A stretch of 64,000 nucleotides of DNA, from NCBI GenBank assembly GCA_044225175.1, contig JBGAJA010000001.1:6994-70993 (forward strand), read 5' to 3'. The DNA comes from Candidatus Omnitrophota bacterium (GTDB taxonomy: Bacteria; Omnitrophota; Gorgyraeia; Zapsychrales; Fredricksoniimonadaceae). Both the position numbers and the translations under genes were made by a program. Position 1 is the first letter of the stretch, and each line of letters starts with the position of its first letter. Below are positions 6,001 through 62,597 of this stretch, piece by piece. Below the pieces are notes generated by a model that made no database searches, was not told where the DNA came from, and worked only from the letters and a program-made list of their open reading frames with translations.

Positions 6001-7617
6001 CCTGATGTTCATGGAAGTCCTTATCTCAATATTATGTATGAACAAAACGGTGTTTGCCGACATCGGGCTTGGGCATTTGTGAGGACAGCTTTAGGACTAG
6101 GTATAGAGGCCAGATATGTTTTAAGTGATATCCATGCTTTTGCGGAAGTCAAAGTTCCTGGCTTAGATTTCTGGATGAGAATTGATTTAGGCGGAGGTGG
6201 AGATCCCATGAATATGTCTCTGGCGCCTTTGGCCAGTGAAATGTACCAACCAGCTTTTGGTGATGATCTTCCTCAGCCAGTTAAATTTCTTGAAAACCAA
6301 AAGAAATTTGAGAAACGAATGGAAAAGGCACTAAAAAAGCAAAACATCAAACCTCAAGTTTCCCAACGCAGCAGCAGTCAATCCAAAAGTCCAGATGATA
6401 AGCAGGATGCTTCTAAAGACCAGTCGTTTGACCGTCAATCTGAAGAACAGCGTATTAAAATGGAAACCGAAAGTCGTATGCATCAAGCAGTAGATCAAGA
6501 GGAGCTTAAAGGTGATATCAATGAACAATTTATTTCTGGAAAGCAGCAAACAGCTTTTGTTTTTGAGCGTTTATTTGATAGCATCAAAGCTGGTATTCGC
6601 ATCCTTCGAGAATTTAAAAGGACGGGAATTGAAATTGACCCGATAGCGATTATGCTTAAACATTCCAAGCCTTTTATTAGCAAGCGTAAAATCAATAAGA
6701 TGAAAAAGACCGCAGCTATGATTTTAATTGATGTGAGTGGAAGTATGGGTGGTGTTAAGAAAGAGATGGCATTTGCCATTGCAGCAATTGGAGGAGGTTT
6801 TTGGCAGCTAAGACAGGTGGCTCAGAAATACTTCTTATATGACATATCTTTTTTTAATATGCAGCCTTCAACATTGGTCCAAATGGGCCAGCAGTTAACA
6901 GAGGATGAAAATAGAAATTTGTTGACCTCTATGGCCAATCACATAGGAGAGGGTGGAACGAACATTGTCGATTCCATGCGTCTGAAGCTTAAAAACCCAC
7001 AGAAAACGGGATTCTTGGATTCGCCTGAAGCCATGCGATCCAGCAATAAATATATTGTCATCTTTACAGATGGGGCAGACAGTAATTCCATTAAAGATAA
7101 GAAAATGACACCCGCATTTGCCGAGGTGTTATCTCAATACCGAGCCGCAGGAATTGATGTTTTTGCTGTGGGTATAGGTCAAGGAGCTAGTGACGTGCAG
7201 GCCTTTACAGGCCAAGGGCAGCATTTTATTACAATCGATGAAGAGAATTATATGGGCATTGCCTTGGCTATTGCTAAGATTGCAGATTTAAAAAGCAAAG
7301 GTGGGGGGTATCTTAAAGAGGGAGACTTGACTGAGCTAGTCTTTGGCCGCACATCTTCCGATCACGCTCAACTTTCTAATGTTCCTAGCGATAAAACCGA
7401 ACCTCTGGGAGGTATAGACCTCAGCCATCCTGAAAGTTTTTTGCAAACTAACAATGATGGAGGAGTAATTAGGCTGACTATTGACCCTGCAATGCTCCAA
7501 TACCTCCAAAACTCTCCAGGTTTTTACCCTATTATTCTTAATGTCCAACCATTGGATGATTTAGGAATATTCTTAGGAATGAATAGTGATCAAAAAATAC
7601 AAGCACTTAAGACGTGA
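1..7617 (+). CDS. Giant multidomain protein, 5' partial (the frame is open from nt 1, so the gene begins upstream of the window). N-terminal ~40-aa beta-propeller repeats, two AAA_5 (MoxR/midasin-type) ATPase domains, an acidic/Ser-rich linker, a C-terminal VWA (MIDAS) domain, and a ~69-aa conserved family tail.
   Basis: Frame 1 is open from nt 1 and in frame with the 2453-aa track ORF. The N-terminal part has ~40-aa propeller-like repeats rich in D, G and hydrophobic residues (for example DGRVFRYQD, LIVLDREYKEVF). Walker A motifs GSPAAGKTS (nt ~2575) and GDTGKAKTT (nt ~4775), Walker B VNVDEAN (~4975) and the AAA_5 signature VFTQNPPDLEGRSETPRRFIDRM are present. The VWA MIDAS motif reads ILIDVSGSMGG (~6720) ... 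IVIFTDGADSN (~7060). The tail GGIDLSHPESF...GFYPIILNVQPL lies at 7408..7614. Confidence 0.8.
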   Translation, partial: SLSFRRDGTLYVTTKDKLLSLNKGETQITSHPYIGFRQLAFDQEGGYIAAGIEDGHLKFIDPKWKELWEEKIGGIKSLSFSKNGQLAVGTISGRLIIFDKGGSRLLDVQIDPYRIEVLFDNEGRCVVITTDGRVFRYQDTYGLIVEDHVHELSSGVSTPKSFLPKKVQVINILEQHSKDIAQDQKFIQLKLTAGIAQNDKDRRQALEQLRVFLDENKGQLGVHSSGTITSQSSLSQQVQIVTISEQPKNDEAKIFTKLKLEAGLSRDDKERTKILSGLKELLEKYEGQLDIANVKKEQIKDDDIVRAWLKKWSSVLPPLDQVLTVNRSANGHWAITTANGLLIVLDREYKEVFNQHIGSIKRLIFSNEGALAVETDSGTLMVIDSDGKISKTVNPNTIYSWRFSNKGYLAVITTGGYLMLFDNSRKLILNEKMEVSIFEFSDEGNLTISTPDEHLIKFNEQGDKVFDEKIEDMLHWKVSIEGSVVVTKGNRFIMINKNGQRVFQESMNSIRAWRYLEDGRLVIETKEGLIVIDKKGSRVFDEKFYLTQFKLSNENHLAVVRTTDKSVGNAIMQDQRLIIKNKEGKEVFNESIGIIKEWKFLSDGMLFVITLEDQVIKINKKGEKVFDQKINHIKGWDLSTREHLAIYTDDRLLLFNNKGENLMDDRIQGIHKAMFLGEELQVITKHGTILHFKERLGFVSEGKIYELSSGIANEQSSLGEKVQVLTMRNERSSNVKVPALSKPSQKPFEPHYGLKPFYFAADRQGFVYLNFKGSWYQTRHQILGKHVFDVKESEIAIVNKKSLQVSSIPLSSIRNPFLKDDQPLKEEDFLIEHHDLEKAESNILSSFASGIHVGLEGSPAAGKTSITQEIALLLGLDYFKFQMHGERQTEDLFGGYQEDAYGRWRLVARPKDLTERQMASLGDGLRSKLLSHGILALDQLSGLYWWNETITGNVELEEALSILSEPLDTQEQAQIFSLLHYQIPFLELLTHGGLLVPDEGAVGEGGQSLLSWFSAIVQGDPVINLESFPGIPFHVRVHQDFHLGITSNAPENTPQRERFKSEIGSHIQYIVVRENTDPIFLQKVFKHFLGTVQGIDGQAIEKMSKTASQVHLDIREQIGKTLGKGQEERFYLSPRDIRRLGRYVRKNLKEQDDLGYVMYKALRLVYEAGFSSQVERSIVLKKINQSIEGTFGPSGTFEQKLKDEINRNFSQALTENEAWMLWLSHELLNLDEPVMYMYEYGARLEDIIEEMRIKRNADIQIIDAAPENGRFEIIGSLRPVLGVVPPGQLKAKFARGGILRNLISHLQMQSQKDSKPKKETIVWIRDIDQWSEDLRTALNGLLEDGYIDIETDGGKVERFYKPSNVHFISELPMDTATEFSSAFFSRWIRCGIAAERTIAQEGGVSQLEEVLHKAYDLDERQAFWLNRIYMELMEYETQVNRKRWNIQRRYDLSVSLIYEVAESIRLAKRKDLQWLDLLNTIKTTGFDPRIQKAQGPIQEAFTALYTSVSARIVGNELMATLGMRFRPEGLTNIISDRELFTEIIEIILNQKIDAPNYPLVVEKGVLMTHTVQEAFLTMDKGLLLGRGVILEGDTGKAKTTAAESFARLKGMDYYKYQSHAGSSISDLTIEINRDAQGNFSKAEKLFYQKIRQGNVVVNVDEANVAPNILWALQAILRGERMIYPPIPGEEPFAIGENVLIVFTQNPPDLEGRSETPRRFIDRMLVHKMGHLSEAEEDALTAMFYGVPLQDDNVPKERQRVVLQRPSPREGEVHFHGGIDLRMREGQETFDDTKEDDTEIEWDSQGKPAAYGVFTPELYPHTRYGASGAFDETTQSFVIPNTPDPQTQHFFQSRRLTRTLTRSHDTFSGRYGMALDHQWHLLPAAGTPMEILDIHVLDENGHKMDVPLEIAKDHFDNWFVRAPQIKMFKDVQLEYRVAVPKVYFGRPVPSKILFEYSQQMSQEIKKGMELVGLSGKEKDYREVLYKLVGFFRNFDVKSGDIPDVHGSPYLNIMYEQNGVCRHRAWAFVRTALGLGIEARYVLSDIHAFAEVKVPGLDFWMRIDLGGGGDPMNMSLAPLASEMYQPAFGDDLPQPVKFLENQKKFEKRMEKALKKQNIKPQVSQRSSSQSKSPDDKQDASKDQSFDRQSEEQRIKMETESRMHQAVDQEELKGDINEQFISGKQQTAFVFERLFDSIKAGIRILREFKRTGIEIDPIAIMLKHSKPFISKRKINKMKKTAAMILIDVSGSMGGVKKEMAFAIAAIGGGFWQLRQVAQKYFLYDISFFNMQPSTLVQMGQQLTEDENRNLLTSMANHIGEGGTNIVDSMRLKLKNPQKTGFLDSPEAMRSSNKYIVIFTDGADSNSIKDKKMTPAFAEVLSQYRAAGIDVFAVGIGQGASDVQAFTGQGQHFITIDEENYMGIALAIAKIADLKSKGGGYLKEGDLTELVFGRTSSDHAQLSNVPSDKTEPLGGIDLSHPESFLQTNNDGGVIRLTIDPAMLQYLQNSPGFYPIILNVQPLDDLGIFLGMNSDQKIQALKT

Positions 7618-7647
7618 GTTTTAAAAGAATTATGTTAGTATCAAAAA

Positions 7648-9658: not shown

Positions 9659-9666
9659 GGAGAGTT

Positions 9667-10440: not shown

Positions 10441-10445
10441 GCGGC

Positions 10446-10508: not shown

Positions 10509-10510
10509 AG

Positions 10511-30869: not shown

Positions 30870-32852
30870 ATGCCTAGAAATATTGATTTCAAACGAACCT
30901 TCCTCGTGGGGCTTCTCTGTGCTTTTATCTTAAACGTCCTGGGGCCATTGCCATCTAGGGCAGAGGAGTTTTATCTTCCTAAACCTGGGCAAATGGTCCA
31001 TTTAAGCCTTCTTGTGAACCCTCCTTTGCTCAAAGGAATCAAGGTCCATCCAGATAATCCTTTTATGTTCGATTTTATCCTAGATCAAGGGTCACGTTCC
31101 GTCGCTGATGCACATAAATTGAAGGAAGAGTCCAGCCGTCTAATCAAGTACTTTTTGGCCTCTTTAACCACCCCAGAAGCCGACCTATGGGTAAACCTAA
31201 GCCCCTATGAGAAAAACCGCATAGTCCCCGAAAGCTTTGGCCAAACCGAGATGGGCCGCGACCTTTTAGCCCAGGACTACATGCTCAAACAGATCACCGC
31301 CAGTCTGATGTATCCAGAAGAAGAGATTGGCCGTAAGTTTTGGAAGAGAATCTATGAAGAATCCGCCAAAAGGTATGGAACAACCAACATTCCAGTCAAC
31401 ACATTCAACAAGGTATGGATAGTCCCCGAGAAAGCCGTAGTCTATGAGAATGCAAAGGCCGGAACAGCCTATGTAGTGGAATCCAGGCTAAAGGTAATGT
31501 TGGAAGAAGACTACGTAGCCTCCAAAAAGGTGTCAGACACCTTTTTGAAGGGGCGGGTTGATAAAAAGGTGTCAGACACCTTTTTGCACAGTCAGATCAT
31601 ACGGGAGGTTGTTATTCCTGAATTGACTAAGGAGATCAATGAAGGGGCCAATTTTGTGCAGCTTAGGCAGGTTTATAGTTCTTTGATTCTAGCCACTTGG
31701 TACAAGAAGAAGATTAAAGATTCGATTTTGGCGCAGGTGTATGTCGATAAAAATAAAATCGTAGGGGTGGGTTCCAAACCCACCCAAGACCGGGCTGGTT
31801 TAGAACCAGCCCCTACGGATATTGAATTAATTTACCAACAATACCTCCAATCCTTCAAAAAAGGTGTCTATAACTACATCAAGGAAGAATCAGACCCGCT
31901 AACGAAACAACCTGTTCCCAGGAAATATTTCTCAGGAGGAGTTAATTTCTTTGGCGATTTGGCTATGAGTACTATAAACCAATTGCCTAATTCTGTGGGT
32001 CCAAAGAACCTGGCAATTGTGGGGGTACAAGTGCGTCCCGTTGATGAGCGAACGTCAGGGATTAAAAATTGGGATGATGTAGATATAGAGGGTTCCTTGC
32101 GACGTTTATTGAAAGTAGAGGAAAGGGAAGATGAAGGATTAGATCAAAAAATCAAAGAAGTGGCACTATTTATGAGTAAAGCTACTATTGGTAGATCTGC
32201 TGTTATGCGTCAAGTTTTAAATGATTTTGTGGATACGTATGGCATCAAAATGGAATTATTGCCTTCGACAACAAAGAAACAGTTATTGACAATCGTTATA
32301 AAAATAACAGGTCAACAAACGTATGAGGTATGGACAAGGTTTATTCAAGAAATAACACGGAAGTTCGGGATAGACATTCAAGAAATAGAAGAAGGACAGA
32401 AGCAGCAATTATTAACGGCTGGGCTGTATGTGGCATTAGGAAAGAAGAACAAGAAAGAAGGGGTGGTAGTATCGGATCAAGAAGAAGTATTTAATGATTT
32501 TCTAGTTTTTGTTAAGGAAACATTTGGGATTAGTGAGGAGGAACTAAGGTTAAAAGAAACAGAAGGAGGGCTTAAGTTAAGTGAGAAATTTCAAATGATC
32601 GTAGCTGGATATCATGTGTCTTTAGGCAAAGCCGAAGGATTAAATACATTTAAAGAGACAATCAAGACCATCCGAGAAACATTTGGGATTAGTGAGGAGG
32701 AACTAAGGTTAAAAGAAACAGAAGGAGGACTTAAGTTAAGTGAGAAATTCCAAATGATTGTAGCTGGATATCAGGTGTCTTTAGGCAAAGCCGAAGGATT
32801 AAATACATTTAAAGAGACAATCAAGACCATCTCGAGAAACATTTGGGATTAG
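30870..32852 (+). CDS. Giant-protein family member, N-terminal fragment. It has a signal peptide, the conserved family N-domain, and then 53-aa tandem repeats; the reading frame is lost at 32852.
   Basis: The signal peptide is MPRNIDFKRTFLVGLLCAFILNVLGPLPSRAEE. The N-domain is almost identical at protein level to the 48163 and 58422 paralogs (LIKYFLASLT.PE.DLWVNLSPYEKNRIVPESFGQTEMGRDLLAQDYMLKQITASL, PRKYFSGG). It ends with 2.5 in-frame copies of ETFGISEEELRLKETEGGLKLSEKFQMIVAGYHVSLGKAEGLNTFKETIKTIR. Confidence 0.75.
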   Translation: MPRNIDFKRTFLVGLLCAFILNVLGPLPSRAEEFYLPKPGQMVHLSLLVNPPLLKGIKVHPDNPFMFDFILDQGSRSVADAHKLKEESSRLIKYFLASLTTPEADLWVNLSPYEKNRIVPESFGQTEMGRDLLAQDYMLKQITASLMYPEEEIGRKFWKRIYEESAKRYGTTNIPVNTFNKVWIVPEKAVVYENAKAGTAYVVESRLKVMLEEDYVASKKVSDTFLKGRVDKKVSDTFLHSQIIREVVIPELTKEINEGANFVQLRQVYSSLILATWYKKKIKDSILAQVYVDKNKIVGVGSKPTQDRAGLEPAPTDIELIYQQYLQSFKKGVYNYIKEESDPLTKQPVPRKYFSGGVNFFGDLAMSTINQLPNSVGPKNLAIVGVQVRPVDERTSGIKNWDDVDIEGSLRRLLKVEEREDEGLDQKIKEVALFMSKATIGRSAVMRQVLNDFVDTYGIKMELLPSTTKKQLLTIVIKITGQQTYEVWTRFIQEITRKFGIDIQEIEEGQKQQLLTAGLYVALGKKNKKEGVVVSDQEEVFNDFLVFVKETFGISEEELRLKETEGGLKLSEKFQMIVAGYHVSLGKAEGLNTFKETIKTIRETFGISEEELRLKETEGGLKLSEKFQMIVAGYQVSLGKAEGLNTFKETIKTISRNIWD

Positions 32853-34260
32853 TGAGGAGGAACTAAGGTTAAAAAAGAAACAGAAGGAGGACTTAAGAGC
32901 AGTGAGAAATTCCAAATGATTGTAGCTGGATATCATGTGTCTTTAAGCAAAAGCGAAGGAGGAATACATTTAAAGAGACAATCAAGTGAGAAACATTTCC
33001 AAATGAGGAGGAATCGTTAAAAGAAACAGAAGGAGGACTTAAGTTAAGTGAGAAATTCCAAATGATCGTTGTAGCTAGATATGCGGTGTCTTTAGGCAAA
33101 GCTGAAGGATTAAATAAGGATTGAGAAACATTTGGGATTAGTGAGGAGGAATTAAGGTTAAAGAAACAGAAGGAGACTTAAGTTAAGTGAGAAATCCAAA
33201 ATGAGTAGCTGGATATCAGGTGTCTTTAGGCAAAGCCGAAGGATTAAATACATTTTCAAGTGAGGAGGAACTAAGGTTAAAAGAAACAGAAGGAGGACTT
33301 AAGTTAAGTGAGAAATTCCAGATCGGAGCTGGATACTAAGGTTAAAAGCTACAAGGACTTAAGAAATTCCGAAGGATTAATTCCCGAAACAAAGAGACAA
33401 TCAAGATAATTCGAGAAACATTTGGGATTAGTCTAAGGTTAAAAGAAACAGAAGGAGGACTTAAGTTAAGTGAGAAATTCCAAATGATCGTAGCTGGATA
33501 TCCGGTGAGTTTAGGCAAAGCCGAAGGATTAAATACATTTAAAGAGACAATCAAGATAATTCGAGAAACATTTGGGATTAGTGAGGAGGAACTAAGGTTA
33601 AAAGAAACAGAAGGAAACATTTGGGATTAGTGAGGAAGGATTAAATACATTTAAAAAGAGACAATCAAGATATAATTCGAGAAACATTTGGGATTAGGTG
33701 AGGAGGATTAAGGTTAAAAGAAAAGAGGACTTAAGTTATGGAGAAATTCCAAATGATCGTAGCTGGATATCAGTGTGTCTTTAAGGAAAGCCGAAGGATT
33801 AAATACATTTAAAGAGACAATCAAGATAATTCGAGAAACATTTGGGATTAGTGAGGAGGAACTAAGGTTAAAAGAAACAGAAGGAGGACTTAAGTTAAGT
33901 GAGAAATTCCAAATGATCGTAGCTGGATATAGTGTAGCTACAAGGAAAGCCGAAGGATTAAATACATTTAAAGAGACAATCAAGATAATCCGAGAAACAT
34001 TTGGGATAGTGAGGAATACAGGTTAAAAAGAAACAGAAGGAGGATTAAGTTAAGTGAGAAATTCCAAATGATTGAGCTGGATATCATGTGTCTTTAGGCA
34101 TTTGAAGGATTAAATACATTTTAGTCCGAGAAACATTTGGGATTAGTGAGGAGGAATTAAGGTTAAAAGAAACAGAAGGAGGACTTAAGTTAAGTGAGAA
34201 ATTCCAAATGATTGTAGCTGGATATCAGGTGTCTTTAGGCAAAGCCGAAGGATTAAATAT
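32517..34260 (+). repeat. Array of about 11 tandem 159-bp (53-aa) coding repeats. The first ~2.5 copies are in frame; the rest, 32853..34207, are heavily degraded by indels and rearrangements.
   Basis: The unit gaaacatttgggattagtgaggaggaactaaggttaaaagaaacagaaggagg...atcaagaccatccga recurs with period 159. Later copies carry deletions, scrambling and a variant (aagataattcga in place of aagaccatccga). Both flanks belong to one family gene. Confidence 0.85.
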
Positions 34261-48162: not shown

Positions 48163-51100
48163 ATGAAAACCCCATTAACTATATTTATTTTAGTGAGTTT
48201 TATTGTTACAGGAACTATAGGCCCTATACCTGTTTCTGCAGAGGTAGGGGCGTATAGCAATACGCCTTTACATTTGCCAAAGCCTGGGGTAATGGTCCAT
48301 TTGAGCCCACCAGCTAATCCAGCAATGCTCAAAGGGATCAAGGTTCATCCAGATAATCCGTTTCGGTTTGAATTCATAATGGATGCGGGTGATCCTGTAG
48401 GGGCACGGCATGCCGTGCCCCTACGTGATGATGCCAGCAGATTAATCAAATATTTCCTCGCCTCATTAACTATACCCGAGCATGACCTCTGGGTGAACCT
48501 AAGTCCCTATGAAAAGAACCGTATAGTTCCTGAGAGCTTTGGCCAGACCGAGATGGGCCGAGATCTATTAGCCCAAGACTACATGCTCAAACAGATCACC
48601 GCGAGTCTTATATATCCTGAAGATGAGATAGGAAAGAGATTCTGGAAGAGAATCTATGAAGAAGCAGCCAAGAAATATGGAACAACGAATATACCTGTGA
48701 GTACATTCAATAAGGTATGGATAGTTCCTGACAAAGCTGGGATTTATAAAACAAATGATACAGCTTTTGTTGTTCAAAGCCATCTTAAGGTCATGGTTGA
48801 AGAAGATTATGTATCGGCCAATAAGGATAATGCAGCAGGAGTAAAAGCAGATGGTAGCCCGAAAACTAATGCCATAGGATCTCAAATTATACGTGAAATT
48901 ATCATTCCTGAATTGACCAAAGAAGTTAATGAAAACCAGAATTTTGCAAATTTACGCCAAATTTATAATTCTCTGATCCTTGCGACATGGTTTAAGAAAC
49001 ATTTGAAGAACAGCGTTTTAAATAAAATTTATGTAAACAAGAACAAGGTCTTTGGGGTGAATGTCGAAAATAGAAATGCAAAGGAAGAGATTTTTGCCCA
49101 GTATTTAACGGCATTCAAAAAGGGAGTTTACAATTATATTAAAGAGGAGCCGGACGTTATAACACAGCAAAAGGTTCCGAGAAAATATTTTTCTGGTGGA
49201 GCTCAATTTGGACAGGTTCCTAATATTCTCACACAAGACCACCTTATTTCTGAGGTTCGCTGCAGTCAGGCCATGCTTGTTTCAGTGAATTTGCAAGCTA
49301 GGAACGATCCTGCAATGCCAACAAGCAAAGAATCATCTAAGATGGGCAAACCTTTGGAAAGCATAGAAATTCCTCATATTTTTTTGAAGCCAAACTCCCG
49401 AATACCTTTGCAAATAGCTAATATTCGACAGGGAGTTTTTTTAGATGATGTGGCTAAAGAGGAATTAACTTTGCAGGATGTATCTTTACTGCAAAGAAAA
49501 ATAGTGCGTCTTAATAATGCTCAAGATGGTCAAGTGATTAGAGATTTTCTTAGGGCTGAAGAAAATCGGGATTATGCATCTGGAAAAGAACCCAGAATGA
49601 TTATTAAACGTATTAAAGATCAGACGTATATTCTTCCATATTCCTCTTACCATAAAGGAGCTTCGCCAGTTCTACTTAAAGTTCTCTCGCAAATGAATAT
49701 TCCTTCCAACGCTCAAGGGCCAGTTTTTTTTACGGATGTGTCTTATATTATAAACCAGAACGATCATCAGAAGATAGATTCGCTTACAGGCCATTTTGCG
49801 GGGACACAAATCTATCTTTTAAAAGCTGATTTTCTTTCTCTGATTGATTCCATGAGTCCAGAATCTAAGTTAAGGGAAATTATTCTTCAGCTTGTTTTAG
49901 AAGAATTATTTGGACAAACATCTCAGAGATCTAAAACTGTTAATTTGGAGGATCAATGGGGAAGGTTTAAAAATTTACTTGATGAGAATAAATTAGATCC
50001 TATCAATTCGATTTGTTTCTTAACTGAAAGGCACTTTATTGCCCCAGAGTTTTTTTTACACGAGTTAGAACAATGGAACATCCAAACAGTAACTTTAGAT
50101 CAAAGAGATGCGATTAATACGATTCTTCGATTTATTATCAATAATGATCCCAATGTTGAGAATTTAACGAGAGCAACAAAATTCTTATACAAAATGGATT
50201 CTCAAGCTGTAATTTCTTTAGCGAATTTGGAGACTACGTCTTTGGCTTTGGAACAAGATAGTCTTAATCAAATGAGTGCAGACGAAAAGATTAAATTTAT
50301 CTTAGTATTAACTCAATTGACTCAAGGAGAACATAGGCTTCATTTATTAATGAAAGCTTACAAAATATTTAAAGAAGCCAGAAATCTTGAGCAGTGGAGC
50401 AGAAAACAACGCTTGAAAGATATCAGTCTTGGATTTGCTCAAATAGGCGCTTATCAACAGGCCATTGAAGTCACGCTTAATGAAAAAGATCAGGATTTCG
50501 AAGTATTGTTTAATATAGCGGAAATTCAATGGAAAGCAGGTGATTGGGAAGGCGCGAATAGAACATTTGAAAAAGCTTTAACAATAGTTCAAGCTTCAGA
50601 CAGAATGCAGGATAGATACATTAATTTAATTTTAAGAATGACTAAAATACAGGGAGTTTCTCATCCTCAAGAGGCCAAAAGAACATTACAGCAACTAACA
50701 AATACACCATTCAATACTTTAATGCAAGTGGCTGTTGTTTTTGCCCGGCTAGGGTTTGAATATGATGCCAAAAATATGTTTCTTAAACTTCGAAGAAATG
50801 CATTGAGTTCAAAAGAAGGTTTAACAAGGCAAGCAGATGCGCTTAAGAAAATAGCCAAGCAGCAAATGGAAATTGGCTATAGTCCTCAAGCTACCCTGGA
50901 AGAATTAAGAAGAATTATTCGTCAAAAGGAAATTGGTTCAGGTTTGAATTGGAGGGTCTTCACTCTTATTGAGATTGTTAAGACAGAAATTAAAGAAGGT
51001 TTTGATTATGAACAAGACTTAAAATTAGCGCAACATTTGGCCGGATTTATAGACAAAGTTGATAGCTTTGAAATAATGAAATCCTTTGCTCAAATTGAAA

Positions 51101-54100
51101 TCATGATAGGAAAAGACGCTAGAAGCTATCTTCAAAAAGCCCAGGAAAGCTTTCGTGATGTTGAGGATTATCAGAAAAGAAAACCTCTAAATGAAATTAT
51201 TAAAATCCAGTTAGATGGTGGTTATTTGACCGAAGCTATAGAAACAATGGGGCTCATTAGAGGTGGGGTGGAGGGAGACTTGTATTCTCGTCTTATCATT
51301 CTTCTTGCAGAATCTGGACAGTATGAAGAGGCATTACAGCGCACCGGTGGCGAAACATTTGAAAAGATTATTAGTATTTATAAAAATAAACCTGGAAATC
51401 GTGCTGAAAAAGCCAGGATTAAAAGATTGTTGAACAATCTCAAAGAACTACGTGAAGAGAAGGAGACAAAAGAGAAAATAAGATATTGGAGCAAAATTGC
51501 AATGTGTCAAATAGACTTAGGGTTTAAGAAAGACGCTCAAGAGACTATCTCACAAGTTAAAGTTCTCATTGGGAAATTAGAAACACATGACAATATTGAT
51601 CGACCGGGTTATTGGCTATGGATGGCAGAACTGGAAATGAAAGCAGGAATCAAGGTTGATTTGAAAATTTTAACGAAAGAAGTGCTTTCTCTTACAAATA
51701 AGAAATATTATGAGAATTTTTCCTCAAAAACAGATGCATTATTGAGTTTAGCGAGAATTCTTCAAAAGAATAAGATGGATTCTACTGAGATTCTTAGAGA
51801 ATTTATTAACATCTGTGAAGAAGAGAGAAGTGACTCGGAAAATGAAGGGTATTATGAAGTTATTGATGCGTTAATTGAGTTGGGTCAATTTCAACGTGAA
51901 TTTGATTATGATGCGTCTAAAACGTACAGAACTGCCTATGGGCTCATTGATGGATCCTATTATGAAGATACCTCAAATGAAAGTAATTATTCTGAAGACA
52001 AAAATACTGACTTTAATAATGTAATGAAAGCCCAAATTAAAGCCGGTTATTTTAAAGATGCACTCACAACGATTGAGAGTCTTGAATATAACGATAAGAT
52101 TGCTGGTTATTTGAACATGTATAACACAGCTAAAAAATCTAATAAGCTTGATATCCAAAATCATGCCTTTAATCAACTATCCATTCAAGGTCAAAATTTT
52201 TCCTTTGGCGATATAACAGATGCCTCAACCGCAATTTTTTCACTTCCACGCATTCGATTTCTTGTTAAAGCTTATTTAGATGGGCAGATTAAGCTTGATC
52301 TTAAGAGTGTTCTCAATTTAATGAGAATTCTTGAAAGCGATTTGTTTTCTTTCGAAGATGGTATTATGGAACGGCGAGCTACTTTATTGCAGTTGACAGA
52401 GAGGGCTCTAAAGGAGAGGTATGGGAATATTCCTGAAATTGAAAATATTTTACGACGATTTTTTTCTAAGATAGAGCGCGACCAGGAAAGGTTTTCTAAA
52501 TCAGCTAATGACCCTAAAGCCCTTGAAGAATTAGGCAGGGAGCTAAGAAATCGGAATTTATCGTTGATTAATACTGTCAATTTAATTGAGCTCTACCACA
52601 TGTATTATCCGAAAATGTCTTACTTCTTGATTTGGCTTTTGACACAAGATGTGCATGTAAGACCCGTTGCAAATCTAAGATACGTTATTATGCAAGCATC
52701 CAGCCAAAAAGTATCTTATAAGCCGCTTCTTTTGTATCTATTACAAGCCCCTTATATTAGCCAGCGAGAGGAACGAGAGAAAGATTATACGAAACGCTGG
52801 CAGCTTTTGAAGAAATATAAAACATTGATGTCTCTTATTTCTCGTCTTGAGATAGAGCAATCTGTTGTCAGTGATATTATGAAGGATTTCTCAAGTGATT
52901 TTGATTTTACACGAACAGAGGAGTTTTTTAAAATAGGCATAAAGAAAGTTTTAGAGCAATATTTAGAAAAACCCCTAGATGACCTTCAAGAAATTAAGAA
53001 TGTGGATGAATTAGTGAATATATTAATTTATATGAAAAATATGTCTGGCGAAGATGATGATGGAGAGGATGAGGAGGGTAATCAAGGTGTATTAAAAGAA
53101 ATTATACATAAATATTTGACTTCTGGTTCAAAGGCGGCCTGGGATTATATAAAAACATTAGGAGGCAATGAAGATTATAAAGATGAAAAGAACTTTCTGG
53201 AAGGTCCAGGGGCCATGAAATTTGTTGTTAAGGAAGTAGAAGATGTAGAACAATTTATTCGTAGTAGAAAACAAATGCTTTATGAAGATATTAAGCGTCA
53301 TATGGAGTGGTTAAAGAATGATTACAGTAAAGATAAGAAGGTTGTAGATGCCATTGAGAAATTATCGATTCAATTCGGTGAGAATGTTGATGAGGATATT
53401 TTGAAAATCAAAACAATCCTTGCGGAGCTCAAAGCTAAAGAGCTGGGAAAGGGGGGTATTCAAAAGAGCAACAGCCATGCGAAAGACATGGAAGAGCGTA
53501 TTTTTAATATTCAGAATTTAAAAGCGCAAACTTTAAGGAATGTCACTGATGAAATCACAATTGATATTAGCCAAGATCCTATTGAAACTTTGCATTTAGG
53601 AGTTGGTTTTCCAAGTTGTTTAGACTGTATAGATGGAGAATACAAAGTCCATGCCTTTGAAAATCTTGTGGATTTAAATAAACGAGTGATTTATGTGAAA
53701 GATAGCCAAGGCAGACGCATTGGTCGTGTAGTTCTTGCTCTTGCAAAAGAAGGGGAAAAGAAAATTATTTTACCGATATCTATATTCTATACAAATACGA
53801 CGTTCGATTTAAATGGCCACATGTTGAGCTTTTTAAAAGCATACAGCCGCCATACGGGATATAATTTATTAATAACGAATAATATTATTTCTGGCTTACA
53901 AGGCCCTAAGCAGGAAGCGAACATTAAATTAGAAGAAGCGGTTGCAAGAACTATTTATTCTGATTTTGGTTTTGAAGTAGGAGAAGGAAGAATAAATGAG
54001 AGTGTCTGGCGTTATACCCCAGATGGGGCGATGAGTGTAGCTCAAAAACAAGAAGTTGGTGGTATTGATTTAAATCCTACAGCCATAACTATGCTTGAAA

Positions 54101-54258
54101 GCGGACAGGATATTCAGATGAAAATTCCTGCTGATTTGAAAAATTTAGAAACTCTGCAATTTGATGGCTTTATTCCTGTCATTATTAATATCACTCCCAT
54201 TGTAAACTTGCCTCTTTTTTTAGGATCAAATCAAGCCCAAGAAGTCGTTACTCATTAG
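48163..54258 (+). CDS. Giant-protein family member (2031 aa). It has a signal peptide, the conserved family N-domain, a long alpha-helical (TPR/solenoid-like) central region, and the conserved family C-terminal tail.
   Basis: The signal peptide is MKTPLTIFILVSFIVTGTIGPIPVSA. The N-domain carries ~55 aa that are nearly invariant against the 30870 copy (LIKYFLASLTIPEHDLWVNLSPYEKNRIVPESFGQTEMGRDLLAQDYMLKQITASL), plus YNYIKEEP and PRKYFSGG. The tail GGIDLNPTAIT...GFIPVIINITPIVNLPLFLG lies at 54058..54255. Confidence 0.85.
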   Translation: MKTPLTIFILVSFIVTGTIGPIPVSAEVGAYSNTPLHLPKPGVMVHLSPPANPAMLKGIKVHPDNPFRFEFIMDAGDPVGARHAVPLRDDASRLIKYFLASLTIPEHDLWVNLSPYEKNRIVPESFGQTEMGRDLLAQDYMLKQITASLIYPEDEIGKRFWKRIYEEAAKKYGTTNIPVSTFNKVWIVPDKAGIYKTNDTAFVVQSHLKVMVEEDYVSANKDNAAGVKADGSPKTNAIGSQIIREIIIPELTKEVNENQNFANLRQIYNSLILATWFKKHLKNSVLNKIYVNKNKVFGVNVENRNAKEEIFAQYLTAFKKGVYNYIKEEPDVITQQKVPRKYFSGGAQFGQVPNILTQDHLISEVRCSQAMLVSVNLQARNDPAMPTSKESSKMGKPLESIEIPHIFLKPNSRIPLQIANIRQGVFLDDVAKEELTLQDVSLLQRKIVRLNNAQDGQVIRDFLRAEENRDYASGKEPRMIIKRIKDQTYILPYSSYHKGASPVLLKVLSQMNIPSNAQGPVFFTDVSYIINQNDHQKIDSLTGHFAGTQIYLLKADFLSLIDSMSPESKLREIILQLVLEELFGQTSQRSKTVNLEDQWGRFKNLLDENKLDPINSICFLTERHFIAPEFFLHELEQWNIQTVTLDQRDAINTILRFIINNDPNVENLTRATKFLYKMDSQAVISLANLETTSLALEQDSLNQMSADEKIKFILVLTQLTQGEHRLHLLMKAYKIFKEARNLEQWSRKQRLKDISLGFAQIGAYQQAIEVTLNEKDQDFEVLFNIAEIQWKAGDWEGANRTFEKALTIVQASDRMQDRYINLILRMTKIQGVSHPQEAKRTLQQLTNTPFNTLMQVAVVFARLGFEYDAKNMFLKLRRNALSSKEGLTRQADALKKIAKQQMEIGYSPQATLEELRRIIRQKEIGSGLNWRVFTLIEIVKTEIKEGFDYEQDLKLAQHLAGFIDKVDSFEIMKSFAQIEIMIGKDARSYLQKAQESFRDVEDYQKRKPLNEIIKIQLDGGYLTEAIETMGLIRGGVEGDLYSRLIILLAESGQYEEALQRTGGETFEKIISIYKNKPGNRAEKARIKRLLNNLKELREEKETKEKIRYWSKIAMCQIDLGFKKDAQETISQVKVLIGKLETHDNIDRPGYWLWMAELEMKAGIKVDLKILTKEVLSLTNKKYYENFSSKTDALLSLARILQKNKMDSTEILREFINICEEERSDSENEGYYEVIDALIELGQFQREFDYDASKTYRTAYGLIDGSYYEDTSNESNYSEDKNTDFNNVMKAQIKAGYFKDALTTIESLEYNDKIAGYLNMYNTAKKSNKLDIQNHAFNQLSIQGQNFSFGDITDASTAIFSLPRIRFLVKAYLDGQIKLDLKSVLNLMRILESDLFSFEDGIMERRATLLQLTERALKERYGNIPEIENILRRFFSKIERDQERFSKSANDPKALEELGRELRNRNLSLINTVNLIELYHMYYPKMSYFLIWLLTQDVHVRPVANLRYVIMQASSQKVSYKPLLLYLLQAPYISQREEREKDYTKRWQLLKKYKTLMSLISRLEIEQSVVSDIMKDFSSDFDFTRTEEFFKIGIKKVLEQYLEKPLDDLQEIKNVDELVNILIYMKNMSGEDDDGEDEEGNQGVLKEIIHKYLTSGSKAAWDYIKTLGGNEDYKDEKNFLEGPGAMKFVVKEVEDVEQFIRSRKQMLYEDIKRHMEWLKNDYSKDKKVVDAIEKLSIQFGENVDEDILKIKTILAELKAKELGKGGIQKSNSHAKDMEERIFNIQNLKAQTLRNVTDEITIDISQDPIETLHLGVGFPSCLDCIDGEYKVHAFENLVDLNKRVIYVKDSQGRRIGRVVLALAKEGEKKIILPISIFYTNTTFDLNGHMLSFLKAYSRHTGYNLLITNNIISGLQGPKQEANIKLEEAVARTIYSDFGFEVGEGRINESVWRYTPDGAMSVAQKQEVGGIDLNPTAITMLESGQDIQMKIPADLKNLETLQFDGFIPVIINITPIVNLPLFLGSNQAQEVVTH

Positions 54259-57021: not shown

Positions 57022-57023
57022 CC

Positions 57024-57757: not shown

Positions 57758-57793
57758 TTCATAAATAATATAGGAAATTTCGGAGGTAATCAA

Positions 57794-58345: not shown

Positions 58346-58356
58346 GGCCCTCTAAC

Positions 58357-58385
58357 TTGACAAGGCTATACCCATAGGGCATACT
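58357..58385 (+). promoter_or_regulatory. Candidate promoter TTGACA-17-CATACT(TT) upstream of the 1403-aa paralog
   Basis: Seen directly. It parallels the element at 48115..48144. Confidence 0.4.
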
Positions 58386-58421
58386 TTGACCAAAGCGATC
58401 AAATACACTTTGGAGAATATT

Positions 58422-61400
58422 ATGTCCCCATTAACCTTAATAGTTTTAAAGTCTATGCGTCATTCTGTCCGTAAGGGCGTTTCTATCGTTATTTTAGTGG
58501 CTTTTATGGCTACTACCGTAAAGACTCCAGCTAATGCTCAATTAGCCCCTTGGATGCCAAAACCTGGGGAAATGGTCCATTTAAGCGCTGATTTCACACC
58601 CGCACACCTTAAGGGTTTGGTCATTCACCCTGAAAATCCACTTAAATTTGACTTCATCATTTATAAAGGTGATGAACGTTTATCCTCCCAAGATAAGCAG
58701 GTTATTTATAAAAATTTAATCAAATACTTCATGGCTTCTCTGGCTGTTCCTGATGACAATCAATGGGTGAACCTTTCTCCCTATGAAAAGAACCGTGTGA
58801 TTGAAGGGGATTTTGGGAAGACGGAAATGGGACGTGACCTTCTGGCCCAAGATTACCTCTTAAAACAAATCACCGCTTCTCTTATATATCCTGAAGACAG
58901 TTTAGGTAAGAAATTCTGGGACAAGGTCTATTCCCAGGCCCAGCAACAATTTGGCAGCACTGCTATCCCTGTGAATACCTTTAATAAGGTTTGGATTGTT
59001 CCGGCTGATGCTCTTGTGTATGAATCAGGCAATACAGCTTATGTCTTGAAGAATCATTTAAAGGTCATGTTGGAAGAGGATTACATGTCTCTGACCAAGC
59101 ACAGTGGGATTAAAAATGTCCCTTCTGATCATGGTAAAGGTGTTAATAAAATAGGCAGTCAAATCGTCCGCGAAATTGTCCTTCCGGCCCTTGAAAAGGA
59201 AGTCAATGAAGGAAAGAATTTTGCTAATTTGCGTCAGGTTTACAGTGGGATGATTCTGGCCGCATGGTATAAGAGGGCTTTGAAAGAATCTTTGTTAGGA
59301 AGAATTTACGCGGATAAAGCCAAAGTCAAAGGAATTGACCAGAACCCTAAGAATAATGAGAAAATTTATCAGCAGTATCTTAAAGCTTATAAAAAAGGGG
59401 TCTTCAACTATATCAAAGAAGATACAGACAAATATTCCAAGCAATCCATTCCAAGAAAATACTTCTCTGGTGGAGCAACAGGATTTGGTGATTTAAGAGC
59501 CAACCTTGCCGTAACATCCAACTCCAGTCAAGCTAACCAAGCCATGTCCGCAGATATCAACAAATCAGGCTTAGATGCTGCCCATGCTGTTTTAGCTGAA
59601 CAAAAAGAAGCTGATAGCGCCATGATCTTAAACGAAAACCAGGTCAGACGTATTGTGGAAGAAAAAGGTGTTTTAGAATTTATCAAAGTATTAGAAAATG
59701 AAGGATTAAGCCTTGTTTCTCATCCTACAGAATCGACTGCAGATAAAATTATTGTTGTAGATGGTAATCGTATTCAATTTGACGTTAATCCAAACCTGTC
59801 TAAGGGACGCTTGTTTCAAATCAAATCTTCGGGCGTAATTCAAGGGTGGCTTTCGAACAAGTTTATTTATATTAAGAATTGGGACGAAATTGTCCGAGAT
59901 GATTTTATGAAAAGGATTGTCAATGTTCCAGGCCAGTCTATTGAAAAATATTTGGAAACATTGGGTCTGAAAGTTTCTGCGGTGACAGATGTGGTTGACC
60001 GAAGAAAATTGCTTAATGATTTAGATTCTCGCAGTAAGTATATGTATTACAGAATTGATCCTTTAGGTGAAGCTGTTAAAGACTCACGAGTCATAGCATT
60101 AGAAGGAAAGATTATTGCCATCGCTATTGGCCAAAAAGAGCCAATTAAGAAAAAAACACCGCTTTTCTTAGAACCCAGATTAGATATGAAGAATAGTTGG
60201 GGGGATCTAATTGTTTCAGCTTCTTTGTCCTCAGACGGTAATAAACTTGTAATTCTCGATTACAATGGAAGAGCTTCATTGTTGAATACAAGAACTGGAG
60301 AAGAGATAGAAGCTCGGGTCTTAACTGCGGGAGATTCCCTGTTTTACGTGGCTACAATTTCTCCTGATGGTAAGTTGATTGCCACCATAGATGGTAGAAA
60401 TGCTTTAAAGCTATGGGATATGGAAACTCAGAAAGTGATTAAAGAGATGGAAGAATTGAGATTTTTTTCTAGTAGTTTTCAACTTACATTCTCACCAGAT
60501 AGTAAGACATTTATAGTTCAAGGGAGTAGAGGAGAAGGGCTTTTATTTGATATAGCTCATAGTAAGCCCATGGTTGAACTTAGATTTTCTGATCGTTATA
60601 CAAATACAGTTTTCTCACCGGACGGCCAAAAGTTTGCACTTGTAGAAAAATACAATGTGATTTTCTTCGATACGAGGACAGGAAAAGAACTTCATCGATT
60701 AGGGATGAAGGATCATATCCATGTTGTTACCTTCTCGCCAGATGGTAAGAAGCTCGTGGTAGGTTTCTATGATGGTGGGGTTAAGCAATTTGATATTGAT
60801 AGTAACACTGAAGAGTGGTTTCTTAATGAACAGAGAGTTCAGAAAATTGGTTTTACAAAAGATGGTACGAATATTGTGACGGTCAATATTGAAGGAGAAG
60901 TCCGTATATGGAATGCGAATAATAGAGAAAAGATCAATGAATTCCAAACTGAATCACGTTCTGATGGGCCTTATCTAGGTAGTTTTCTGGCAGAAGATAA
61001 TCAAAGTATTGTGAGAGCAGATAAGTCAAAGATAAGAATATATGATATCCCAATCGCTACGCTCAAATCCAATGAAGAACAAGATTTGTCTGTTGAGGCA
61101 GATGAGGAAACCATGACTATTGTTGGCTCCGATGGCCAAAGCCGTGGATTTGAGAAAAGAGGAACCAAGTGGGAACAGGTCTCTAAAGGTCCTAGTGAAG
61201 GGAATCCAAATTTAAGATTTAAAATAAATAATGATGGTCAATTCCTAACAATAGGGGATCCAGACGGCACAGGAATCACAAAGATCTATCAGCGCTCAGC
61301 TGATGGTAAAAGTTTCGAATTGAGGACCTCTTTAGCTCCAGACTCCGGCCCAATCATGCAAGTCTCCGACACTACAGGAGAGATAGAAGGGCAAAATAGT

Positions 61401-62597
61401 TATAAGATTAAATTTGTTCTAAAAAATGGAGAGTGGCAGATAGGGGAAGATGTTGAATCAAAGAAATCAGAAAATCCAGTAAAGAATGTAAAAAGTGCCA
61501 AACAAGAGCTAGCTGAGATAAAGGAAGGGATTGAGCAGCTGAACAAGGCGCTTGAACAGACTAAAACTCCAGTAACTACTTTAGTAGATTCTCAAGATAG
61601 GTTAAATGTGTTGTTGAAAGAAAGAGCAAGACTAGAGAAGATGATTGAGTTTGGAGAGCAAACCGGTAAAGAACCCTTAGCTATAAGTAGCGGGCAAGTT
61701 ATAACTAAAGATGATTCTGGAACAGTCATAATATGGGAAAAAATGCCCGATGGAAAATGGAAAGATGTCGAAAAGATTGGAGTAGTCAAATCATTCGAAG
61801 TGGTGAATGATGGAGAATTTATAACAAAAGATGATGCTGGAAAAATCACCACATGGGAAAGAAAACCAGATGGAACTTGGAAAGCAAAAGATGCAGCCAT
61901 GCTTGTTACGTTGAATGATGGTACGACGAGTGTACCATTGGGGTTGGTTCAGGTTATCTATAAGTTTCTAGAGCTCAGACCTTTGACGTCATTTCAAGGG
62001 TTAACAGCTGATAATCTTGAAGTGAGGATTCCTGGATTTTTAGAATTAGTTTCCTCCGATTATACAGGTGCAGATTCTCCTTTGGGAATTGCGGAAATGT
62101 CTGTGAAGATTATTGAGCAAAGTATAGTGGATGGGCGCTTGGTAAATCCAGTTAAACCTGGTCAAGGTGTGGTATCCTCAAATTCAGGTGTTCCATTTCT
62201 TGTGGGAGGTTTAGATCTTTCAGGCTTTAACTTTACAGTTTTAAAGGATCCGAGGTCTCTTGCTCCTTTTGTTTTTGATATTGATCGTATTCATACGATT
62301 GTAATTTCTATTAAACCAATTGATCCTGAAGATAAGCAAGCATTTTTGAACCTTAAAGATGAGCCAAAAGCAGATCCAGCCATGAAGAATACCAAGGGGG
62401 GTATTGACTTTAATGCGGCCCATTTGAATTTGCAGATCAAAAGGGACGGCAAAGGTGTGCCGCTTCCGATGTCCCAGCAGAATTTGGAAAACATCCGCCT
62501 CGATGGCCTTGTGCCAGTCATCATTAACATCACACCGATTACCAGCATGCCTGTTTTATCTCAGCTTATTAATTCTAATCAAGTGGCCAATGGATAG
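58422..62597 (+). CDS. Giant-protein family member (~1390 aa). It has a signal peptide, the conserved family N-domain, a WD40 beta-propeller, a coiled-coil segment, duplicated short repeats, and the conserved family C-terminal tail.
   Basis: The start was chosen at the ATG preceded by GGAGA (MSPLTLIVLKSMRHSVRKGVSIVILVAFMATTVKTPANA). The N-domain matches (LIKYFMASLAVPDDNQWVNLSPYEKNRV..GKTEMGRDLLAQDYLLKQITASLIYPED, NYIKEDTD, PRKYFSGG). WD40-type repeats lie at ~60200..61030 (SPDGKLIATIDGRNALKLWD, FSPDGKKLVVGFYDGGVKQFD, VRIWNAN). The tail GGIDFNAAHL...GLVPVIINITPITSMPVL lies at 62397..62594. Confidence 0.85.
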   Translation: MSPLTLIVLKSMRHSVRKGVSIVILVAFMATTVKTPANAQLAPWMPKPGEMVHLSADFTPAHLKGLVIHPENPLKFDFIIYKGDERLSSQDKQVIYKNLIKYFMASLAVPDDNQWVNLSPYEKNRVIEGDFGKTEMGRDLLAQDYLLKQITASLIYPEDSLGKKFWDKVYSQAQQQFGSTAIPVNTFNKVWIVPADALVYESGNTAYVLKNHLKVMLEEDYMSLTKHSGIKNVPSDHGKGVNKIGSQIVREIVLPALEKEVNEGKNFANLRQVYSGMILAAWYKRALKESLLGRIYADKAKVKGIDQNPKNNEKIYQQYLKAYKKGVFNYIKEDTDKYSKQSIPRKYFSGGATGFGDLRANLAVTSNSSQANQAMSADINKSGLDAAHAVLAEQKEADSAMILNENQVRRIVEEKGVLEFIKVLENEGLSLVSHPTESTADKIIVVDGNRIQFDVNPNLSKGRLFQIKSSGVIQGWLSNKFIYIKNWDEIVRDDFMKRIVNVPGQSIEKYLETLGLKVSAVTDVVDRRKLLNDLDSRSKYMYYRIDPLGEAVKDSRVIALEGKIIAIAIGQKEPIKKKTPLFLEPRLDMKNSWGDLIVSASLSSDGNKLVILDYNGRASLLNTRTGEEIEARVLTAGDSLFYVATISPDGKLIATIDGRNALKLWDMETQKVIKEMEELRFFSSSFQLTFSPDSKTFIVQGSRGEGLLFDIAHSKPMVELRFSDRYTNTVFSPDGQKFALVEKYNVIFFDTRTGKELHRLGMKDHIHVVTFSPDGKKLVVGFYDGGVKQFDIDSNTEEWFLNEQRVQKIGFTKDGTNIVTVNIEGEVRIWNANNREKINEFQTESRSDGPYLGSFLAEDNQSIVRADKSKIRIYDIPIATLKSNEEQDLSVEADEETMTIVGSDGQSRGFEKRGTKWEQVSKGPSEGNPNLRFKINNDGQFLTIGDPDGTGITKIYQRSADGKSFELRTSLAPDSGPIMQVSDTTGEIEGQNSYKIKFVLKNGEWQIGEDVESKKSENPVKNVKSAKQELAEIKEGIEQLNKALEQTKTPVTTLVDSQDRLNVLLKERARLEKMIEFGEQTGKEPLAISSGQVITKDDSGTVIIWEKMPDGKWKDVEKIGVVKSFEVVNDGEFITKDDAGKITTWERKPDGTWKAKDAAMLVTLNDGTTSVPLGLVQVIYKFLELRPLTSFQGLTADNLEVRIPGFLELVSSDYTGADSPLGIAEMSVKIIEQSIVDGRLVNPVKPGQGVVSSNSGVPFLVGGLDLSGFNFTVLKDPRSLAPFVFDIDRIHTIVISIKPIDPEDKQAFLNLKDEPKADPAMKNTKGGIDFNAAHLNLQIKRDGKGVPLPMSQQNLENIRLDGLVPVIINITPITSMPVLSQLINSNQVANG

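Follow-up and report, generated by a model that had tools for sequence, protein, structure and literature searches.

The C-terminal sorting domain of the type IX secretion system (T9SS; PF18962 / TIGR04183) is a conserved element of ~60-100 amino acids (aa) that forms the very C-terminus of many different Sec-leader proteins, which are often very large, and it is multi-copy and lineage-restricted. The tripartite signals of the sortase, exosortase, archaeosortase, rhombosortase and myxosortase systems (LPXTG, PEP-CTERM, PGF-CTERM, GlyGly-CTERM, MYXO-CTERM) are also C-terminal, accompany leaders, contain an invariant signature and occur on many paralogous carriers per genome. In two-partner secretion (TPS) a Sec leader and a conserved N-terminal domain of ~250-350 aa precede the very large, variable remainder of the TpsA exoproteins. 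MARTX toxins, which are substrates of type I secretion systems (T1SS) without Sec leaders and have long glycine-rich repeat ends and an internal cysteine protease domain, combine constant ends with swappable enzyme modules, and the MASP-type mosaic surface proteins of Trypanosoma cruzi have conserved N- and C-terminal flanks around a variable centre. Here, a stretch of 64,000 nucleotides from a Candidatus Omnitrophota bacterium (GenBank assembly GCA_044225175.1, contig JBGAJA010000001.1, positions 6,994 to 70,993 of the forward strand; hereafter the window) was analysed, in which four large proteins end in the same C-terminal module of ~57 residues with the signature GGID. With the module at one end, a constant two-ended frame encloses interchangeable cargo and defines a very large protein family found nearly only in Omnitrophota. 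The functionally nearest analogue of the module is the T9SS sorting domain. In recent reports, Omnitrophota are described as widespread, uncultivated and mostly ultra-small bacteria with host-dependent or predatory traits and with very long proteins whose abundance is unexplained (PMC10066038; bioRxiv 10.1101/2023.11.21.568195; 10.64898/2026.06.07.730766).

Translation of the four tail intervals showed that each opens with GGID[LF] and reaches a stop codon 59-69 residues on. In pairwise BLASTP the tails alone were 32-49 % identical, with E-values from 4e-6 to 5e-18. The shared tail reported by a first-pass annotation of this DNA, which had been made from the letters alone, is thus real. The same annotation regarded the four proteins as otherwise different in architecture, and this view had to be given up: BLASTP between the window proteins revealed exactly two shared regions, namely the first ~360-390 aa and the last 60-70 aa, and the middles are unrelated. 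Members 2, 3 and 4 share a Sec-like leader and an N-terminal domain of ~350-390 aa (N-domain), with 51-58 % identity among the genes at 30870, 48163 and 58455 (E 1e-111 to 1e-139). Three N-domains lie in the window, one for each module-bearing gene whose 5′ end is present, and member 1 runs off the 5′ edge. A hidden Markov model (HMM) of the four tails found no fifth copy in the six-frame translation of the window, where the next best match had an E-value of 0.48; as this model is circular for the four tails themselves, independent support comes from the pairwise BLASTP and from matches outside the window. The family features of the window are given below, with a slash in the leaders at the putative cleavage site (ORF, open reading frame).

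1..7617, + strand: family member 1, a frame open from base 1 and encoding at least 2,538 aa, 5′-truncated by the window edge
Within 1..7617, + strand: cargo of member 1, consisting of beta-propeller-like repeats, an AAA_5 ATPase (Pfam, E 6.7e-15), a transglutaminase core (Transglut_core, E 1.1e-3) and a VWA domain (E 3.3e-6)
7408..7614, + strand: module of member 1, DPAM sub-type, GGIDLSHPESFLQ...DPAMLQYLQNSPGFYPIILNVQPLDDLGIFLG, followed by a 13-aa tail
30870..32852, + strand: front part of member 2 (whole gene 30870-35584), with Sec-like leader (…PLPSRA/EE), N-domain at 30870-31952 and the start of 53-aa repeats
32517..34265, + strand: repeat array in member 2, degenerate 159-bp (53-aa) tandem repeats, ~11 units with 5-10 % indels
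34208..35584, + strand: back part of member 2, a 458-aa ORF with the module at its end
35405..35581, + strand: module of member 2, DPAM sub-type, based on translation and BLASTP
48163..54258, + strand: family member 3, 2,031 aa, with leader (…PIPVSA/EV), N-domain at 48163-49209, long middle and module
54058..54255, + strand: module of member 3, with a D-G-A-M motif 12 aa upstream of GGID
58455..62597, + strand: family member 4, 1,380 aa, with leader (…TPANA/QL), N-domain at 58455-59486, WD40-type beta-propeller and module
62397..62594, + strand: module of member 4, the nearest of the four to the family consensus (GGIDFNAAHLNLQIKRDGKGVPLPMSQQNLENIRLDGLVPVIINITPITSMP...), with a D-P-A-M motif 10 aa upstream of GGID

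The reading frame of member 2 is split because of frameshifts within the 159-bp repeat array. The 'split paralog' of the first-pass annotation is a single gene (30870-35584), in which the break reflects either a pseudogene or an assembly error through repeat collapse. The N-domain of this member was matched with an E-value of 3.5e-200 by an HMM that had been seeded with the same sequence, and is 58 % identical to that of member 3. The exact sequence of member 3 is present in the public protein collection, and in its middle only weak TPR matches under the Pfam cut-offs were detected. For member 4 the start was set at the ATG at 58455, although the mechanical ORF begins with a TTG at 58386; the resulting 1,380 aa are identical to the database protein P0080. 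The leaders of the three members show a positive n-region, a hydrophobic h-region and a small-x-small site (SRA/EE, VSA/EV, ANA/QL). Two module sub-types can be distinguished, ...D-P-A-M-[LI]-Q...GFYP[IV]I in members 1 and 2 versus ...LQIKRDGxGVPLP..QQ...G[LF]xPVIINITP in member 4 and, more loosely, in member 3. Contrary to the gapless alignment described before, the two sub-types can be aligned only with gaps of 2-3 residues. As had been stated, no transmembrane (TM) helix follows the module in the window tails, and no long extension either.

A first word-index search with the four tails returned 32 proteins of 61-125 aa, from which a much sharper consensus emerged; both word-index searches listed proteins of up to 650 aa only, and the tool seems to favour short proteins. 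The spread of the module, for which an HMM search had been suggested, was then determined by an exhaustive HMMER search of a 33-sequence profile against 1.84 billion cluster representatives, with 5,976 matches at E<=1e-3 and 3,191 at E<=1e-10. Carriers thus number in the thousands; they are multi-copy per genome and largely confined to Omnitrophota. Among the best 150 of the 5,976 matches, which were inspected, the best module match forms the extreme C-terminus in every case (150/150) at protein lengths between 80 and 4,969 aa, the module is normally single-copy, and its distance to the protein end has a median of 16 aa. No case of an internal-only module was seen among these 150 carriers. In the raw DNA of the fetched loci a stop codon follows within <=39 codons after the module in 85/87 copies. 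Stand-alone small module proteins were considered and rejected: those examined turned out to be C-terminal pieces of larger proteins, located at the ends of contigs or in long-read assemblies full of frameshifts. Thus, P0027 lies at the end of a contig in an Omnitrophica metagenome-assembled genome (MAG), with a complete family gene directly after it, and P0015 is the last piece of a gene for ~3,000 aa with the order N-domain, phosphoglucose isomerase (PGI), phosphoglucomutase (PGM) and module, which was chopped by frameshifts in a long-read assembly.

The two ends are tightly coupled. In 50 of the 55 module carriers with at least 800 aa the N-domain starts at residue ~15 (E 1e-124 to 1e-200), and shorter carriers without it look like C-terminal fragments. 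At 52 fetched loci an N-domain was also found within ±3 kb of the module, in a short member or in tandem family genes. Complete compact members with both ends account for 14 of the 120 N-domain matches listed, all of which have <=650 aa, and the smallest of these is P0274 with 474 aa, in which only ~60 aa lie between N-domain and module. The apparent exceptions to the coupling are frameshift-split or contig-truncated genes. One such candidate for an N-domain protein without module (P0299, on a 1.29-Mb contig) was rejected, because it covers only the first half of a gene broken by a frameshift, and the ORF that follows has the module at its end. The N-domain consensus reads LPKPGxMVHLS…LKGIxVHPxNPFxFxFI…LIKYFLASL…WVNLSPYEKNR…FGxTEMGRDLLAQDYxLKQITASL…NTFNKVWIVP…LKVMxEEDY…PRKYFSGG, and both protein ends are far more conserved than the middle. 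Sec-like leaders, with a net-positive n-region and then a hydrophobic h-region, were called at 129 of 139 intact N-termini of N-domain proteins; in 125 of these 129 the LPxPG landmark is also preceded by an AxA-like site. Members 2, 3 and 4 of the window each combine a leader, an N-domain and one module copy that lies no more than ~40 aa from the C-terminus, the combination by which membership in the family was defined.

The lineage distribution was further assessed with a scan of one genome per species, for which one narrow peptide pattern was used that samples the LQIKRD sub-type only. The scan gave 177 confirmed loci, and several genomes contributed multiple loci despite the narrow pattern, e.g. 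five from nDJH6bin18. The best 80 of the 177 loci were classified: 56 are labelled Omnitrophota or Omnitrophica, 17 belong to 'uncultured Planctomycetales' third-party annotation (TPA) bins, 3 to 'Candidatus Elulimicrobium', 3 to 'bacterium' and 1 to 'Desulfobacteraceae'. The Planctomycetales labels probably denote Omnitrophota, because one such MAG was linked to an aspartyl-tRNA synthetase (AspRS) in the same 90 % cluster as that of the window, beside a named Omnitrophota MAG. The Elulimicrobium loci L011, L029 and L031 are on DYOU01 contigs of 'Candidatus Elulimicrobium sp.' MAGs (Patescibacteria group in the NCBI taxonomy) and the remaining one, L016, is from an 'uncultured Desulfobacteraceae'; these four probably represent mis-binned or mislabelled Omnitrophota contigs. 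A phage or mobile origin of the family was rejected, with no relatives found on IMG/VR viral contigs.

Neither end of the family corresponds to a known domain. Tails, N-domains and complete members were compared with Pfam-A, with NCBIfam, which holds the TIGRFAM sorting-signal models, and with PHROGs, and nothing relevant was found even at E<=10, so that the tail is not a catalogued sorting or binding domain; the first-pass annotation had likewise not recognised it as a T9SS, PEP-CTERM, GlyGly-CTERM or LPXTG-type sorting signal. The NCBIfam sorting-signal models matched none of seven tails and two complete members at E<=10, and two rows at E 0.12-0.13 were chance matches. Sequence searches of the PDB with the module profile and with a whole-family profile gave chance matches or nothing. 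In the searchable literature the strings QIKRDG, GGIDLN, GGIDFN and PVIINI occur only in an unrelated plant paper, and neither family end is mentioned, as far as searched, in the work on Omnitrophota and their long proteins. One of these papers reports long Omnitrophota proteins with signal peptides and metabolic Pfam modules (phosphoglucomutase, receiver, HAD, GNAT, methyltransferase). Judged by sequence comparison, the proteins built of leader, N-domain, variable middle and C-terminal module are a new, previously undescribed family.

The module consensus, derived from 193 copies, is vGGIDLNPAlLDLQIKRDGNGVPLPlxQQPIenMxIdGFvPVIINITPvtNLPLLLGlad, in which G6, G7, I8, G42, P45, I47 and P52 are conserved to >=98 % and which contains 7 prolines and 6 glycines in 57 residues. 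It is followed by a variable tail of 16 aa on average that is rich in L, S, E, A and D and has neither a basic cluster nor a conserved aromatic end; among its last residues N, V, A and G are the most frequent. In some proteins (P0009, P0014, P0015, P0016, P0023 and others) an acidic tail ends in …[LV/K][ES]N-COOH, and the last residue is Asn in 46/172 cases; this may be an extra motif at the extreme C-terminus of one sub-family. Structure prediction of the tail, as had been proposed, was carried out with AlphaFold2. The module alone (last 86 aa of member 4, 33-sequence multiple alignment) reached a predicted template-modelling score (pTM) of 0.20 and showed no beta-strands. Full-length P0274 (76-sequence alignment) reached a pTM of 0.71 with a well-predicted N-domain of long helices and two beta-hairpins, and here two segments were DSSP-paired strands, namely PVILSI of the module (449-457) and residues 372-380, a conserved strand of the linker; they lie in blocks with a predicted local distance difference test score (pLDDT) of 84-91. 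Foldseek searches with the P0274 model gave best E-values of 0.63 against the PDB, with ClyA-type pore-forming toxins and colicin Ia on top (probability <=0.08, TM-score ~0.1), and of 0.28 against BFVD; all fold relatives were rejected as not significant.

The module is strictly C-terminal, tightly coupled to the N-domain, found on proteins with Sec-like leaders, largely restricted to one lineage and without known homologue. Position, leaders, copy number and lineage are as one would expect of a terminal element for sorting, anchoring or docking. The first-pass annotation had reached a similar view from four tails: the idea of a terminal tag stands with regard to these properties, but the tag is not attached to unrelated proteins, as all carriers form one paralogous family. 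Of its suggestions, a shared docking domain is the one that best fits the predicted structures. Our preferred reading, which we hold tentatively, is that the module would serve after Sec export as a docking peptide that binds by beta-strand addition. The leader would direct the family protein through Sec. The module would then not be an autonomous domain but an extended, Pro/Gly-rich peptide of ~57 residues, whose amphipathic PVIINI strand, and probably the LxLQIKR strand too, would be added to an existing beta-sheet of a partner. Candidates for this partner are the N-domain or linker of the family itself, either in cis or on an adjacent family protein, and a shared envelope receptor; through docking, the cargo would be sorted, anchored or assembled within the envelope or at the surface of the cell. 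In this proposal, what we infer are export as such, strand addition as the mode of binding, the nature of the partner and where the proteins end up.

The same models bear on a second explanation, in which N-domain, linker strand and module would make up one discontinuous fold with the cargo inserted in a loop. The tail would then be no signal at all, and whatever the N-domain does, be it anchoring, pore formation or catalysis, would need both ends; this overlaps in part with docking in cis. The strict co-occurrence of both ends, which are paired in each complete family gene of the window, is consistent with such a fold, as are their much higher conservation compared with the middle, the existence of cargo-less minimal members such as P0274, and the fact that the module is unfolded alone and yet provides a paired strand in the full-length model. 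However, that model has low confidence for ~45 of the 57 residues of the module, among them the invariant GGID and QIKRDG, and it would be unusual for a fold to close over inserts as long as ~4,500 aa. We consider this closest alternative to docking unlikely.

With respect to the T9SS sorting domain, the likeness of the module ends with its position, its carriers and its distribution. The T9SS element is an autonomous Ig-like beta-sandwich of ~70-100 aa, which is not predicted for the module (pTM 0.20), and neither the tails nor the whole proteins tested match its Pfam or NCBIfam profile at E<=10. In addition, the carriers described here also share an N-domain of ~370 aa, and their cargo consists largely of cytoplasmic-type enzymes. 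T9SS genes (PorK/L/M/N, SprA, PorU/V) were absent from the 64-kb window. As a separate observation, one of 31 aligned family members has a Pfam Por_Secre_tail match (E 1.8e-6) besides the family's own module. Compared with the tripartite signals, the invariant GGID and the many paralogous carriers per genome are similar, whereas the module is longer, proline-rich and without a TM helix, and ends in the L/S/E/A/D tail instead of a basic cluster; the region after PVIINITP contains Pro, Asn and Thr and not the order of motif, TM helix and basic cluster. A beta-barrel formed by several module copies, comparable to the trimeric autotransporter anchor with ~70 aa per subunit, was also considered as an oligomeric outer-membrane anchor. 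Its length of ~57-65 aa, the two or three stretches of alternating hydrophobic and polar residues (LDLQIKR, PVIINIT), the C-terminal location on large proteins with Sec leaders and the lack of a fold as a monomer would suit this idea. Nevertheless, seven prolines, several of them inside the putative strands, no strands predicted for the isolated module, no match to an autotransporter-type or YadA-type anchor family of Pfam, and a variable acidic or Ser-rich tail in place of a C-terminal aromatic residue make such an anchor very improbable.

The frame encloses diverse cargo. In 44 other full-length members the Pfam matches are mostly to cytoplasmic-type enzymes and signalling modules, with counts of 5 for phosphoglucomutase, 3 for UDP-glucose pyrophosphorylase (UDPGP), 3 for phosphoglycerate kinase (PGK) and 4 for receiver domains, in addition to CofD, CheR, PP2C, DUF952, HEAT repeats and a propeller. 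P0119 contains a complete phosphoglucose isomerase at residues 1471-1962 (648 bits). Precomputed annotations add a SAM-methyltransferase and HAD, and a weak GNAT match belongs to the split gene of L085; for many middles Pfam gave no match. Complete sugar-phosphate enzymes, namely PGI, PGK, PGM and UDPGP, and also CofD were observed inside proteins with Sec-like leaders in P0119, P0129, P0115, P0171 and P0046 and at locus L001 (1293-10345). Enzymes for sugar phosphates or ATP on proteins with export leaders are a standing paradox, and cytoplasmic-type cargo does not fit the simple picture of a secreted adhesin. A further feature of the full-length proteins is the motif D-x-A-M-[LVTI]-[ASGV], which occurs 129 times against 12.3±3.4 in shuffled sequences, a ~10-fold enrichment. 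It tends to be located 25-50 aa past the N-domain, between cargo modules and shortly upstream of the module GGID, e.g. at residues 376, 1135 and 1296 of member 4 and 382 and 1954 of member 3, and likewise in P0143, P0055 and P0152; the DPAM module sub-type holds it internally, and it is missing in ~40 % of the members. D-x-A-M could be a processing site or a helix N-cap marking module boundaries.

Cargo and motif together raise the question of a delivery frame as in MARTX toxins, whose constant ends would move enzyme modules into a host or prey cell that supplies ATP and sugar phosphates, with D-x-A-M as release sites in parallel to the inter-effector processing sites of those toxins. The need of PGI, PGK, PGM, UDPGP, receiver, PP2C, CheR and AAA+ cargo for cytoplasmic substrates in spite of Sec-like leaders points in this direction, as does the ~10-fold enrichment of D-x-A-M at module boundaries. 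Among Omnitrophota, ultra-small, host-dependent or predatory bacteria have moreover been reported (PMC10066038, PMC13153191, bioRxiv 10.1101/2023.11.21.568195). The alpha-pore-forming toxins and colicin Ia among the top Foldseek matches would also be compatible with delivery, but with their low probabilities and TM-scores these matches carry no weight. Against delivery, D-x-A-M is lacking in the ~40 % of members mentioned above and its context D-x-A-M-L-A-E-K-E-E resembles a helix N-cap more than a site for a protease; ORF clustering of the flanks tied neither a protease nor an injection apparatus to the family; and, unlike in MARTX, glycine-rich repeat ends and a cysteine protease domain were not detected by Pfam. 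On balance, delivery of this kind appears improbable. The MASP-type proteins of T. cruzi, for their part, are eukaryotic and unrelated in sequence, and their variable centres are short antigenic regions and not enzyme domains.

The window is an ordinary diderm chromosome region with 39 % GC, and the neighbours of the four family members are housekeeping genes. It encodes lpxB, an MsbA-like ABC transporter, AcrB with a TolC-like gene, mreD, PBP2, histidyl-tRNA synthetase (HisRS), AspRS and purE. The ABC transporter gene at 37696 is near lpxB and probably encodes MsbA, and the TolC-like gene at 10511 accompanies the AcrB-type gene. Neither in the window nor in the flanks of the fetched loci was a dedicated export system found beside the family genes. 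All-against-all clustering of the ORFs of the fetched loci returned as recurrent neighbours only candidates that were rejected as antisense shadows of family genes or as orthologous synteny with a UbiE/men operon. These results also concern the idea of a type I secretion signal at the C-terminus together with a retention domain at the N-terminus. This is the arrangement of the LapA-type giant adhesins, which have the same layout of a constant N-terminal domain, a long variable middle and a constant C-terminal region of ~60 aa. T1SS substrates have no Sec leaders, whereas the family proteins do (129/139); their signals are poorly conserved in sequence, whereas the module is near-invariant at many positions; Pfam detected no RTX-type calcium-binding repeats in the four window proteins and 44 other members; and no ABC/HlyD pair adjoins the family genes. 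A T1SS signal is hence scarcely credible. By analogy to TpsA proteins, the N-domain itself could be the export determinant. Unlike in these proteins, it has no haemagglutination-activity or TPS Pfam match at E<=10 and is predicted as a mixed alpha/beta structure with long helices and two beta-hairpins and not as a right-handed beta-helix, and TpsA proteins themselves have no conserved C-terminal module. The family is homologous neither to these proteins nor to MARTX toxins.

Several results weigh against docking of the module after Sec export. In the P0274 model the GGID…QIKRDGxGVPLP…QQ half of the module, which is its most conserved part, has a pLDDT of only 42-60, and no docking site was predicted there. 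The PVIINI block already has a pLDDT of ~85 when the module is folded alone, and therefore the contrast between the two models lies mainly in the pairing and not in the confidence. PGI, PGK, PGM, UDPGP, receiver, CheR and AAA+ modules are normally cytoplasmic and would be odd cargo for Sec-exported proteins anchored in the envelope. The ORF clustering of the fetched loci disclosed no recurrent receptor, sortase-like protease or secretion system beside the family genes, and the leader calls come from simple heuristics, neither from SignalP nor from experiment.

Some further features of the window were recorded. A complete 'aerotolerance'-type operon with the gene order MoxR(AAA_3)-DUF58-DUF4381-BatA-BatB-TPR-BatD is located at 23821-30817, directly upstream of the family gene at 30870; member 1 likewise combines an AAA_5 ATPase with a VWA domain. 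The region 10511-12193 is a single 560-aa ORF, in which a MarR-type winged-helix regulator (aa ~36-109) is in frame with the TolC-like outer-membrane efflux protein. A signal-peptide-like stretch (…VCILLIEVIAFFSFSISAFA/SEQ) lies between the two parts, and the AcrB-type gene is directly downstream; the ORF is either a real fusion or due to a lost stop codon or a sequencing error. The 1,069-aa ORF at 19616-22825 has neither a Pfam match nor a leader, and its exact sequence is the sole member of a 90 % cluster in the public collection. At 23412-23723 a 103-aa ORF was found that has a signal peptide and whose C-terminal half is extremely rich in Lys (…KKSMKKHSKKKGYIKGQHPHKKLKKSKRTKKAHHKK…).

The searchable two-ended frame accounts for thousands of the very long proteins of Omnitrophota. 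It provides a handle for cataloguing the cargo per genome, for following the fate of leader-bearing sugar-phosphate enzymes and signalling domains, for finding the partner machinery and for localisation in Velamenicoccus enrichments. Should the module prove to be a novel signal for sorting or assembly, it would be a further entry in the short list of bacterial C-terminal targeting systems and would be usable as a display or targeting tag. The frame may also, though this is less likely than not, belong to an undescribed targeting or assembly system specific to Omnitrophota, which would send enzyme and signalling modules to the surface, to a compartment, or to host or prey cells. If such a phylum-specific system exists, the tail would be a sorting or assembly signal of a categorically new kind, and central sugar-phosphate enzymes would work outside the cytoplasm of the producer.

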